Below are positions 26,105 through 28,841 of a DNA stretch of 47,298 bases, in pieces. A model generated the notes under the pieces. That model worked only from the letters and a program-made list of their open reading frames with translations, had not been told where the DNA came from and searched no databases. How positions within the stretch are numbered: the stretch's first letter is position 1; the number at the start of each line of letters is the position of its first letter. The position numbers were made by a program, and so were the translations under genes. Origin of the DNA: Legionellales bacterium (GTDB taxonomy: Bacteria > Pseudomonadota > Gammaproteobacteria > Eutrophobiales > Eutrophobiaceae); assembly GCA_002692205.1 (NCBI GenBank), contig NZJM01000061.1, forward strand, positions 1-47,298, read 5' to 3'.

Positions 26105-27496
26105 ATGATTAACTTTCCAATTTTTATAAAACTTCAAGATCAGGAATGTCTTGTAGTAGGAGGCGGAGCTGTTGCTGCAAGAAAAATCAAGCATCTATTA
26201 AATGCTGGCGCGAAAGTATCTGTTGTCTCGCCTACTATTCAAGCCTCATTAGAAGAAGTTCACAAATTAGGTAAGATTGATTATTTTAAAGAGAAATATT
26301 GCGAAAAGTTTCTTGAAGAAAAAAAAATAGTTGTAGCTGCAACCAATAATGCACAGCTTAACTATCAAATTGCTGAACAAGCAAAATCAAAAAATATATT
26401 TGTAAATGTTGCTGATAATCCCGAAGCTGGAACATTCATAATTCCATCCATTGTAGATAGAAGTCCTATTATAATTGCAATTTCAACTAGCGGCATTGCT
26501 CCCGTTTTAACTAGATTGTTAAGTACAAAATTGGAGACAGTAATTCCATCAAGATATGGTGAATTAGCAAAGCTGATTAGTTCTTTTCGTGGAAAAGTAA
26601 AAGAAAAGTATAAAAATATCAAAGATAGACGTAGATTTTGGGAAAATATTCTGAATAGCTCAATAGCTGAAATGTTTTATGCTGGGCAAGAAGAGAAAAC
26701 ATTAAAGTTAATTGGAAAAATACTTAAGGATGATAAGCCAGTTGTAAAACATACTGGAGAAGTATATCTAGTAGGTGGTGGTCCTGGCGATCCAGAATTA
26801 TTAACATTTCGCGCTTTACGTTTAATGCAACAATCTGATGTTGTTCTATATGATCGATTAATATCACCAAAAATTCTTGATTTTGTTCGTAAAGATGCTG
26901 AAAGAATTTATGTCGGAAAGAAGAGAGATAGGCATACATTACCTCAATCTGAGATTAATCAATTGTTAGTAGATTTAGCCAAACAAGGAAAGCGTGTGTT
27001 GCGACTAAAAGGCGGAGATCCATTTATGTTTGGACGCGGAGGCGAAGAAATCGATTTACTTAATGAGAATGAGGTTTCATTTCAAATTGTTCCTGGAATT
27101 ACAGCTGCAAGTGGTTGCGCATCTTATGCAGGTATTCCACTGACTCACCGTGATTATGCACAATCTTGTTTATTTGTAACTGGGCATCTAAAAGATGGCA
27201 GTATGAATTTAAATTGGCAAACTTTAGTGCAGCCTCAGCAAACTATAGCTGTTTACATGGGCACTCATAGTTTGAGTATATTGAGTCATCAATTAATGAA
27301 ACACGGAATGAAAAAGTCTATGCCGGCTGCGATTATTCAGCAAGGAACAACAGGAGAGCAAAGTGTTTTTCTCTCAACTATTGAACTACTACCTGAACTG
27401 CAAAGAGAAAATAATATTAAACCACCTAGCATGATTATTATCGGAGAAGTAGTCTCACTTCATGAAAAACTCGCTTGGTATAAGTCTGATACCTAA
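26105..27496 (+). CDS. cysG: Siroheme synthase CysG (dehydrogenase/ferrochelatase plus SUMT)
   Basis: VGGGAVA.RK N-domain; GGGPGDPELLT, RLKGGDP, GRGGEE, PGITAA. Confidence 0.95.
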   Translation: MINFPIFIKLQDQECLVVGGGAVAARKIKHLLNAGAKVSVVSPTIQASLEEVHKLGKIDYFKEKYCEKFLEEKKIVVAATNNAQLNYQIAEQAKSKNIFVNVADNPEAGTFIIPSIVDRSPIIIAISTSGIAPVLTRLLSTKLETVIPSRYGELAKLISSFRGKVKEKYKNIKDRRRFWENILNSSIAEMFYAGQEEKTLKLIGKILKDDKPVVKHTGEVYLVGGGPGDPELLTFRALRLMQQSDVVLYDRLISPKILDFVRKDAERIYVGKKRDRHTLPQSEINQLLVDLAKQGKRVLRLKGGDPFMFGRGGEEIDLLNENEVSFQIVPGITAASGCASYAGIPLTHRDYAQSCLFVTGHLKDGSMNLNWQTLVQPQQTIAVYMGTHSLSILSHQLMKHGMKKSMPAAIIQQGTTGEQSVFLSTIELLPELQRENNIKPPSMIIIGEVVSLHEKLAWYKSDT

Positions 27497-27554
27497 TTAC
27501 TAGCATATCTTCTCAAAGTTCTAATCGTTATTGCTATTAAATAGAAGAAAATAA

Positions 27555-27583
27555 TTGAAAGTTCTCGCTAAGTACTCTATTCT
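27555..27583 (+). promoter_or_regulatory. Sigma70 promoter of lexA
   Basis: TTGAAA-N17-TATTCT. Confidence 0.65.
27561..27575 (+). promoter_or_regulatory. Putative LexA operator 1 (GTTC-N7-GTAC)
   Basis: GTTC-tcgctaa-GTAC fills the promoter spacer; one mismatch from GTTC-N7-GTTC. Confidence 0.5.
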
Positions 27584-27589
27584 AACAAA

Positions 27590-27608
27590 GAGAACTTATG
27601 GAGAACTT
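27590..27608 (+). promoter_or_regulatory. Putative LexA operator 2 (GAAC-N7-GAAC, alphaproteobacterial-type SOS box)
   Basis: Direct repeat GAGAACTT-atg-GAGAACTT with 11-bp period, overlapping the predicted +1 and the RBS. Confidence 0.7.
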
Positions 27609-27611
27609 TAA

Positions 27612-28205
27612 ATGCTAACGGGTTTAGAAGAGAAAATTTTACAGTGTATTACAATTTATATAACTCAGAATGGTCGAAGCCCAACACTAGATGAGATTGG
27701 TCAATTACTTTCAATTAAATCCAAAGGGACTATTCATCGTTATATTAAATCATTAATTAAAAAAGGCCATCTTCACCGAAGCGGGAGGAATTGGCGAGGC
27801 ATCCGTCTTACTGGGGAGCAAAATCGAAAGTTAACTATTTTACCTCTAGCGGGCAGAATTGCTGCTGGAAAACCAATAGAGGCAATTTCTGAACAATATG
27901 AAATAAACTTTTCTGAAATGCTATTGGGACCAGGTCGATATGTTCTTGAGGTGCAGGGAGATTCTATGATTGATGCAGGTATATTGGATGGTGATCTGGT
28001 TATTATCAGAGAGACGCAATCCGCTGATAATGGGGATATAGTTGTTGCATTAATTGATAATAGTGAAGCAACTCTGAAGCGGCTTAAAAAAAATGGAAAT
28101 CAAATTGAATTAATTCCCGATAATAAATCAATGAGTCCAATGAAATATTCGGCAGATCGAATAAATGTTCAAGGTGTCGTGGTGGGGCAGGTAAGAATGT
28201 ATTAA
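27612..28205 (+). CDS. lexA: SOS repressor LexA
   Basis: N-terminal wHTH (SPTLDEIG..L.IKSKGTIHR), cleavage site IAAG.P, catalytic GDSM Ser and TLKR Lys. Confidence 0.93.
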   Translation: MLTGLEEKILQCITIYITQNGRSPTLDEIGQLLSIKSKGTIHRYIKSLIKKGHLHRSGRNWRGIRLTGEQNRKLTILPLAGRIAAGKPIEAISEQYEINFSEMLLGPGRYVLEVQGDSMIDAGILDGDLVIIRETQSADNGDIVVALIDNSEATLKRLKKNGNQIELIPDNKSMSPMKYSADRINVQGVVVGQVRMY

Positions 28206-28238
28206 CTATTTTTTATTTTATAAATTCGACATTAGGAT

Positions 28239-28841
28239 CTATACATCTTTTCTATAGCGATGTTGAGCACTCATCACTACTTTGATTAGTGCTTCCTGTA
28301 ATATTGAATCGCTATCGTTACTAAATAAGGAAAATATTAGTATTAGTTTTCCTACTCCTAATGCTCCTTGAGTTAGGTATTGGTATTCTCCGGATGAAGC
28401 ACTACTATCTGATAGATTGAAAAAGTATCCAATTCCATATTTTCCTGAAATTTTTTCTAATTCCAGCTCAGTCTGATCCGAGTGAAGCAGAGCTTGTTTT
28501 CCAGTTTTTTCTACTAAAGAACGAATATATTCGGGAGATGAGATATTTCTCTGAAAACCATCTTCCCAGAGTACCGACAAGTTTAGTTGGTAAATTTCCT
28601 CTTTGTCTTTATTAAGATTATAGAATGTAATTATTGGTGGTTTATCTTCATTTGTTGTTGTGAAATTATAATTCCAGATTTTTGGAACATCGATTACGAG
28701 CTTACCATGACCCGGTATTGCAAATGATTCAGAGTCAGTCCTATACTCAGTGGTATTTTCTGTTGTAGCGGAGGTATTAATTACATACAAAGAAATAAAT
28801 AATAGAAAAATATTTTTATAATTATTATCCAATTTAAGCAT
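28239..28841 (-). CDS. Hypothetical exported protein
   Basis: 200-aa ORF filling the gap; signal-peptide-like N-terminus; no family recognised with certainty. Confidence 0.7.
   Translation of the reverse strand: MLKLDNNYKNIFLLFISLYVINTSATTENTTEYRTDSESFAIPGHGKLVIDVPKIWNYNFTTTNEDKPPIITFYNLNKDKEEIYQLNLSVLWEDGFQRNISSPEYIRSLVEKTGKQALLHSDQTELELEKISGKYGIGYFFNLSDSSASSGEYQYLTQGALGVGKLILIFSLFSNDSDSILQEALIKVVMSAQHRYRKDV

Follow-up and report, generated by a model that had tools for sequence, protein, structure and literature searches.

Which DNA sites does the LexA repressor encoded at this locus of an uncultured marine gammaproteobacterium recognize, and which genes would it control through them? In gammaproteobacterial regulon predictions, the palindrome CTGT-N8-ACAG is routinely assumed to be the site. 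The original prediction followed up here claimed instead that this lexA gene is autoregulated through direct repeats of the alphaproteobacterial type, and that a gammaproteobacterial SOS regulon may be wired to the same motif. In the following, the window denotes the whole stretch of DNA that was analysed (47,298 nt), and the two predicted 17-bp sites in front of lexA are referred to as operator A and operator B.

The lexA locus and its promoter

The lexA gene (27612..28205, plus strand) encodes a protein of 197 aa, with a winged-helix DNA-binding domain and an S24 self-cleaving domain. It is a stand-alone gene, flanked on one side by cysG, which ends at 27496 and leaves an intergenic spacer of 115 bp before the lexA ATG at 27612, and on the other by a 200-aa gene without an assigned function; the cysG-lexA arrangement is retained in genus relatives. 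The 200-aa reading frame (28239-28841, minus strand) is oriented convergently to lexA; its product is hydrophobic over a stretch at the N-terminal end and matched no Pfam family.

A promoter scan of the plus strand of the cysG-lexA intergenic region returned a single sigma-70-like match, namely a -35 hexamer TTGAAA (27555..27560) and a -10 hexamer TATTCT (27578..27583), with a spacing of 17 nt. Operator A, the 17-mer GTTCTCGCTAAGTACTC (27561..27577), occupies the spacer between these hexamers exactly. It has the form GTTCTC-N5-GTACTC, and on the minus strand, to which it is assigned, it reads GAGTAC-N5-GAGAAC; GTTCTCGCTAAGTAC begins at 27561. Operator B, GAGAACTTATGGAGAAC (27590..27606, plus strand), has the form GAGAAC-N5-GAGAAC and is the mirror image of operator A. 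It contains GAACTTATGGAGAAC (27592-27606) as well as an 8-nt direct repeat, GAGAACTT, which the repeat finder places at 27590 and 27601 with a period of 11, and it overlaps both the predicted +1 and the Shine-Dalgarno sequence GGAG (27600-27603). Together with their flanks, the two elements make up an imperfect inverted repeat (27554..27613, repeat finder), whose arms (27554-27578 and 27589-27613) are 25 nt each, 84% complementary and separated by 10 nt. The promoter hexamers, both repeats and a further half-site, AAAGTTCT at 27515, were all recovered at the positions originally given for them. What is more, the absence of CTGT-N8-ACAG, which had been claimed for the intergenic region, extends to the entire window. 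No known RNA family was found in 27000-28400, where the best E-value was 0.12, far under the gathering threshold.

How unusual are such repeats in a genome of this size? The bare 4+4 motif is not rare: pairs of GAAC or GTTC with an N7 spacer occur 17 times in the 1.32-Mb genome versus approximately 28 expected, and in the 115-bp lexA spacer such a pair is expected 0.0024 times. The exact sequence GAGAAC-N5-GAGAAC, expected 0.09 times per genome, has a single occurrence, at lexA. As for CTGT-N8-ACAG, there are 5 copies in the genome, below the approximately 14 expected from composition; two of the five look like E. coli boxes, and we rejected them as canonical sites given that the total lies below chance and that a canonical LexA was not found. 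The half-site at 27515, which we considered as a third operator element, is present, as the original prediction had it, and even across the genus it shows no conservation. For this reason, and since AAGTTCT/AGAACTT has 246 copies in the genome, we take it to be a chance occurrence.

Conservation of the two predicted operators

Related sequences were collected by protein search in a set of 41 genomes, which gave orthologues in 18 of the 24 genomes of the same family, and public species genomes added more. For the footprint we used 41 loci in which LexA is at least 45% identical to that of the window and the promoter contains no N, and these reduce to 35 distinct promoters. Importantly for what follows, no criterion other than protein similarity went into the retrieval of this set (LexA 47-93% identical). 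Upstream of the lexA orthologues, where the original prediction had placed one of its checks, operator A matches at 10 or more of 12 core positions in all 35 promoters and operator B does so in 34, with L018 being the exception. Core positions in these 35 promoters are 91-98% conserved versus 47-76% for the positions of the N5 spacer, and the DNA upstream of the -35 hexamer cannot be aligned among them. Part of the conservation of operator B can be credited to the ribosome-binding site, with GGAG lying inside it, and part of the conservation in the flanks of operator A is due to the -35 and -10 hexamers.

The half-site that emerges from this comparison is GAGAAC (GTTCTC), with a weak preference for T on its 3' side. 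In other words, the half-site is indeed extended, as had been suggested, only that the extension lies on the other side from that in the proposed AGAACTT. It is mainly the third base of the half-site that can vary (GTAC, GTCC). Throughout the genus of the window, operator A contains GTAC and the final half-site of operator B is GAGAAT, for which the window itself has GAGAAC; GATCTC is used by two more distant members, L019 and L021.

In the wider clade, 90 distinct promoters were available. About two thirds of these were chosen for a perfect operator A, and the presence of operator B is consequently the sole unbiased count in this set: it was found in 65 of the 90 and is missing in the other 25. 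In the 65 promoters with both operators, a set that is partly pattern-selected, TTGAAA stands directly 5' of operator A in 61. Downstream of operator A, orthologues have TATTCT, TATTAT or TATGCT. As operator A is present in all protein-retrieved promoters, and operator B in 65 of 90 promoters of the wider set, the putative site in the promoter spacer is the universal element and the one over the start a frequent second element.

Could the functional unit be the large palindrome that the two operators form together, bound by LexA as a dimer of dimers or in some other arrangement? The complementarity of the 25-nt arms speaks for such a unit, as does the centre-to-centre distance between operators A and B, which is 29 bp in 30 of the 65 promoters with both. 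The distance nevertheless varies from 23 to 35 bp, and operator A stands alone in the 25 lexA promoters without operator B and also at promoters of Y-family polymerase genes and of imuA (see below). With operator A solitary at so many promoters, the large palindrome fails as the unit of recognition, and we regard it as improbable, even if it is the best of the alternatives to two separate LexA operators.

Several observations on individual promoters should be mentioned. In some lineages (L163, L215, L247 and L251), no more than approximately 6-7 nt separate the -10 hexamer from the lexA ATG, which suggests that these lexA transcripts may be leaderless; the absence of operator B from these four promoters follows from the ATG lying so near the -10 hexamer. 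In a bin labelled Planctomycetota (L231), LexA is 58% identical to that of the window and its promoter has the same operator; as this LexA falls within the gammaproteobacterial sequences of the tree, mis-binning of the contig is likely. Among distant relatives, lexA promoters of three Terriglobia (L298, L303, L310) have direct repeats of an 11-bp period, TTCGC...TTCGC, in the promoter spacer, and in one member each of Omnitrophica (L299) and Saccharibacteria (L350) the spacer holds the direct repeat TTTCGGT...TTTCGGT with the same period.

The LexA protein and its relatives

The protein scores 169.4 bits against the TIGR00498 equivalog model, with a cut-off of 110.95, and both PF01726 (LexA_DNA_bind) and PF00717 (Peptidase_S24) of Pfam lie above gathering. 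The residues for cleavage and catalysis are present, namely Ala85-Gly86, Ser118 and Lys156: the segments IAAGKP (A85-G86), GDSM (S118) and TLKRL (K156) align to VAAGEP, GMSM and TVKRL of the E. coli protein. Among 23 members of the clade, G86 and K156 do not vary, and conservation is at least 90% at A85 and S118. Judged by these features, the repressor is intact, and recA is present in the genome (contig C44).

Two members of the clade depart from this picture. In L016 (from genome G023) and L019 (from G022), the self-cleavage signature is lost (LexA alignment columns approximately 88-125): the cleavage sites read GNFSSGRAIEK and GAIKTGSALIP, respectively, and not GRIAAGxPIEA, and the catalytic motifs read GNAM and DDGM, and not GDSM. 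These two proteins may be non-cleavable LexA-like repressors; G022, the source of L019, also has a canonical lexA.

The recognition-helix region of the LexA in the window, residues 34-48, is SIKSKGTIHRYIKSL, and the clade consensus is SKGtVHRYV. Over these residues, identity is 48% to alphaproteobacterial LexA (KSKSGIHRLITAL), 13% to canonical gammaproteobacterial LexA (SpNAAedHLrAL), and 23% to Gram-positive LexA (SsStVhhhLsrL) and the rest. The C-terminal domain is likewise closest to that of alphaproteobacteria (52% versus 39-43%). In a tree of 79 LexA proteins, the clade of the window forms one group (SH-aLRT 96), as do canonical gammaproteobacterial (99) and alphaproteobacterial (100) sequences. 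The free tree joins the clade to canonical gammaproteobacterial LexA at a support of 35, and constraining it to group with alphaproteobacterial LexA gives an lnL that is 3.16 higher than that of the free tree (p-AU 0.579). In this tree, the clade is distinct and separate from canonical gammaproteobacterial LexA, and at depth it may belong next to alphaproteobacterial, Gram-positive-like or canonical gammaproteobacterial LexA; we claim neither a donor nor a direction of transfer. Its members are 191-211 aa long (197 aa in the window), versus 224-237 aa for the alphaproteobacterial LexAs compared.

Does the type of protein go together with the type of site? For six canonical LexAs belonging to the same class, the promoters hold CTGT-type boxes, with the GTTCTC repeat being absent, and 40 of the 43 alphaproteobacterial lexA promoters compared have GAAC-N7-GAAC by hand count. 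As far as these comparisons of protein and promoter go, the answer is yes. The central claim of the original prediction, that is autoregulation of lexA through alphaproteobacterial-type direct repeats rather than CTGT-N8-ACAG, thereby gains support: the repeats are found in all orthologous promoters and at polymerase genes, and the putative reader has an alpha-like helix. No second lexA was found in this 1.32-Mb genome (G000), which is 87% complete. The genome on which the original prediction could have foundered, one with CTGT-N8-ACAG at recA and other SOS genes and a second, canonical lexA, is not the one we see at this level of completeness, neither feature having been found in it. A canonical lexA does accompany that of the clade in some relatives, G008 and G022, so that the absence of a second gene holds for this genome and not for the group at large.

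Predicted targets and non-targets

A position-specific scoring matrix of 19 columns was built from the lexA sites and scanned over the genome. Operator B ranks best (28.5 bits) and operator A second (20.7 bits), followed by a site on contig C62 (15.7 bits) in front of a Y-family polymerase gene. Nine positions score above 12 bits, and only these three are intergenic; the other six lie inside long reading frames and were rejected as indications of further regulon members. The third site is organized much like operator A. Namely, C62:8211-8240 reads TTGAAT / TTTCTC-N5-GTTCTC / C / TATAAT and ends 23 nt before the polymerase gene, which has a GGAG, an ATG at C62:8263 and the motif DMDAFFASIEQ, and is interrupted by the contig end. 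Two relatives, G021 and G020, have Y-family polymerases of 423-425 aa behind a perfect TTGAAA-GTTCTC-N5-GTTCTC-TTATAAT, and these polymerases score 164-176 bits against DinB models, under the curated cut-offs. In five complete relatives, all one-mismatch matches to the pattern other than those at lexA and two polymerase promoters lie inside reading frames or are without promoter context, and were set aside. The same was done in L122 with a possible further site downstream of the polymerase promoter, the spacing of which is 9 and not 11.

Two side observations concern the polymerase genes themselves. At L122:1547-1576, there is a 9-codon reading frame (MTIKIVAKY) where the polymerase of G000 starts (MTIKNWPRV...), and the long polymerase reading frame of L122 begins only at 1604, which may reflect a frameshift or an assembly error. 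In six other loci (L141, L148, L181, L191, L223 and L255), the LexA-type promoter and the Y-family polymerase gene are separated by a long, conserved leader, covering approximately 150-190 nt after the promoter, which begins ggctcgtccctgaaaa...ttttcaagaca(t/c)gactcccc and could contain a small ORF or an RNA element.

How general is this pairing of site and target? We scanned the 18-base pattern TTGAAAGTTCTC-N5-GTTCTC across one genome per prokaryote species and obtained at least 120 matches, with approximately 17 expected by chance. Among the matches listed, the co-oriented gene within 700 bp downstream is lexA in 72 cases, a Y-family polymerase in 24 and imuA in 4, with Sedimenticola being among the last, and there is no such target in 20. 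Of these 20, again among the matches listed, 8 come from Bacteroidota, Spirochaetota, Acidobacteriota, Bacillota, an archaeon and an alphaproteobacterium and are probably fortuitous; several of the remaining ones are cut by contig ends. Note that the pattern requires TTGAAA beside the repeat, and the search is therefore blind to operators in any other context.

Other classic SOS genes are a different matter. Upstream of recA (C44), recN (C14) and uvrA (C22), no box of either type was found, the matrix giving 3.5, 2.0 and -6.9 bits, respectively, and CTG-N10-CAG was not found upstream of lexA, recA, recN, uvrA or the polymerase gene in G000. In the recA promoters of four complete relatives both box types are absent as well, with best scores of -8.2 to 11.1. 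The recA promoter itself (G000 C44:150-290; L352, L353) contains aaaaatattgacat-N-aaaaaagtat...tata and barely differs between three genera of the family; recA could be expressed constitutively or be controlled in some other way. Since recA, recN and uvrA carry neither type of box, the predicted regulon looks like a small mutagenesis module, consisting of lexA and translesion polymerases. The idea of an SOS regulon on an alpha-type motif thus stands as regards lexA and the Y-family polymerase, and does not as regards recA, recN and uvrA.

Distribution in Gammaproteobacteria

To place these findings in the class as a whole, we surveyed 400 genomes drawn evenly from it. By hand count, 132 of them match the LexA of the window at E<=1e-39, a threshold that was set ahead of the pattern search. 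The exact repeat GTTCTC-N5-GTTCTC is present in 76 of these 132 genomes (and in the remaining 56 it is not) versus 53 of the 268 others, an association that is overstated, with a Fisher p-value not to be taken at face value, since related genomes are not independent. Hand comparison places the repeat beside the lexA match in at least 54 of the 400 genomes. These counts include four genomes flagged as unpublished, G331 in the 132 and G063, G165 and G319 in the 53; excluding them gives 76 of 131 versus 50 of 265 and affects none of the 54. Among the named carriers, be they metagenome-assembled genomes or strains, are Sedimenticola, Granulosicoccus, Thiogranum, Sulfuriflexus, Methylobacter, Methylomarinum and Cocleimonas.

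The 53 genomes that have the exact repeat and no similar LexA raise the question of whether a different transcription factor binds GTTCTC repeats, with lexA being merely one of its targets. Against this, an exact 12-base pattern is expected to arise by chance in a fraction of genomes of 2-5 Mb, and a reversed control pattern also matches many genomes of the survey. What is more, the repeat stands in the lexA promoter of every orthologue examined, its remaining targets, a Y-family polymerase and imuA, are classic LexA targets, and the recognition helix of this LexA resembles that of LexAs which use GTTC-N7-GTTC. It is the set of targets and the recognition helix that make a different factor unlikely, to the point that we give this possibility little credence, somewhat less than the large palindrome.

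Proposed mechanism

The reading that we favour, and that we hold with considerable confidence, is that the LexA whose gene directly follows uses both 17-bp elements as its operators, that the same LexA represses the Y-family polymerase, and that recA, recN and uvrA lie outside its control. As to its parts, the repeats in the lexA promoter almost certainly function as a LexA operator, of the direct-repeat type that is already known, and are most likely the docking sites of this LexA itself. All three of the rival explanations are weaker, the last of them markedly so: that there is no repressor site at all, and that the conserved bases are promoter and ribosome-binding signals kept by shared ancestry, could draw on the GGAG inside operator B and the hexamers flanking operator A, but is hardly credible when spacers of sigma-70 promoters are normally not conserved in sequence and these spacer hexamers stay 91-98% conserved down to 47% LexA identity next to unalignable upstream DNA, and when unlinked promoters, of polymerase genes and of imuA, have the identical spacer sequence, which the recA promoters of the same genomes lack.

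How would two LexA operators work in this promoter? LexA binding at the repeats, its stoichiometry, repression and induction are all inferred from the DNA and protein sequences, and the following scheme should be read in this light. In each operator, the hexamer GTTCTC is repeated directly with a period of 11 bp, i.e. GTTC-N7-GTTC, and one dimer of LexA would occupy each direct repeat, in analogy to the alphaproteobacterial protein. Bound at operator A, in the spacer between the -35 and -10 hexamers, LexA would exclude RNA polymerase, and bound at operator B, which covers +1 to approximately +17, it would block initiation or promoter escape; the two operators jointly would bring about tight autorepression of lexA. 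RecA-stimulated self-cleavage at Ala85-Gly86, with Ser118 and Lys156 as the catalytic dyad, would then remove LexA and relieve both operators. Finally, LexA would repress the Y-family (DinB-like) polymerase through the operator inside the promoter spacer of the polymerase gene. That said, the sites in this genome have their weak points, in that one half of operator A is GTAC, and one half of the polymerase operator is TTTCTC, with 15.7 bits only for the site. What also counts against the operator reading is the short linker of this 197-aa LexA on a site of the direct-repeat type.

One can speculate further. A similar LexA is present in approximately one third of the genomes that were drawn evenly from the class. 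It is possible, though we would call it doubtful, that this LexA shares its ancestry with alphaproteobacterial LexA and that the direct repeat is older than the CTGT palindrome in Proteobacteria. This LexA would then be the main one of many non-enteric Gammaproteobacteria, such as sulfur oxidisers, methanotrophs and marine Legionellales-like bacteria, in which the SOS response would be a self-limited mutagenesis switch made up of lexA and error-prone polymerases, and neither recA nor excision repair would be under the control of LexA.

Significance of the findings

A LexA clade with a direct-repeat site is apparently undescribed, and widespread, in environmental Gammaproteobacteria. The full-text literature gave no gammaproteobacterial direct-repeat LexA box, subscription journals and supplements being outside the scope of this search and a prior description being possible; in particular, the available portions of PMC13148647, PMC8565304, PMC7739468 and PMC9578287 mention no gammaproteobacterial GTTC direct repeat. 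For this lineage, and apparently for many environmental Gammaproteobacteria, the assumption of CTGT-N8-ACAG in regulon prediction would miss the real operator and find nothing. If confirmed, the predicted regulon would be a naturally occurring case of the minimal SOS core, centred on mutagenesis, that has been proposed in the comparative literature (PMC7739468, available part). Moreover, there are cultured carriers, e.g. Sedimenticola selenatireducens DSM 17993 and a Granulosicoccus isolate, in which the prediction can be put to a direct test.

Comparison with known LexA systems

Departures of LexA from the motif of its class have precedents. Direct-repeat LexA motifs occur in Verrucomicrobia, Patescibacteria and Balneolaeota, and a study of Sideroxydans reportedly described a non-canonical palindrome for a betaproteobacterial LexA. 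The present system resembles these in that LexA departs from the class motif across a lineage, with translesion polymerases as conserved targets, and differs from each of them in the motif or in the phylum. According to the available part of PMC7739468, LexA evolved recognition of direct repeats several times, and translesion synthesis is the core of the regulon.

A second group of precedents are the second LexA proteins, which control the lexA2-imuA-imuB-dnaE2 cassette. Here, too, the predicted targets are essentially LexA itself and error-prone polymerases, the protein coexists with a canonical LexA in the relatives G008 and G022, and in Sedimenticola a box stands before imuA. Unlike a cassette lexA2, however, the gene in the window is not beside imuA-imuB-dnaE2, is the sole lexA found, and has a direct repeat for a site. 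Two LexA proteins with different sites are noted for Pseudomonas putida and Xanthomonas in the available part of PMC9578287.

With canonical LexA of gamma- and betaproteobacteria, as in E. coli (PDB 3JSO/7B5G), the protein shares its family, its length class and its self-cleavage residues, and residues 2-195 align with an E-value of 3e-33. The two part ways in DNA recognition: CTGT-N8-ACAG is not found here at lexA, recA, recN or uvrA, residues 34-48 are SPNAAEEHLKAL in E. coli and SKGTIHRYIKSL in the window, with canonical gammaproteobacterial LexA being only 13% identical there, and a branch with a support of 99 divides the clade of the window from canonical gammaproteobacterial LexA.

The closest likeness is to the alphaproteobacterial system. 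The direct-repeat SOS box GTTC-N7-GTTC is attributed to Alphaproteobacteria in the available text of PMC8565304 and is listed for Caulobacter crescentus in that of PMC9578287. The box described here differs in several respects, its half-site being the hexamer GTTCTC, its location being within the -35/-10 spacer, and a mirrored second copy often being present; the host is a gammaproteobacterium, LexA forms a clade of its own (SH-aLRT 96), and the linker insertion of alphaproteobacterial LexA is missing (197 aa versus 224-237 aa). The regulons differ as well: recA and uvrA are LexA targets in Caulobacter, whereas recA, recN and uvrA would not be targets here. What the two systems have in common is the tetranucleotide, its direct orientation, the period of 11 bp, the position in the lexA promoter and a similar recognition helix, KSKGT(I/V)HRY here and KSKSGIHRL in alphaproteobacterial LexAs. 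In this sense, the LexA of the window offers a data point on how LexA motifs change, in which an alpha-like helix and site would be combined with a short linker of E. coli length.
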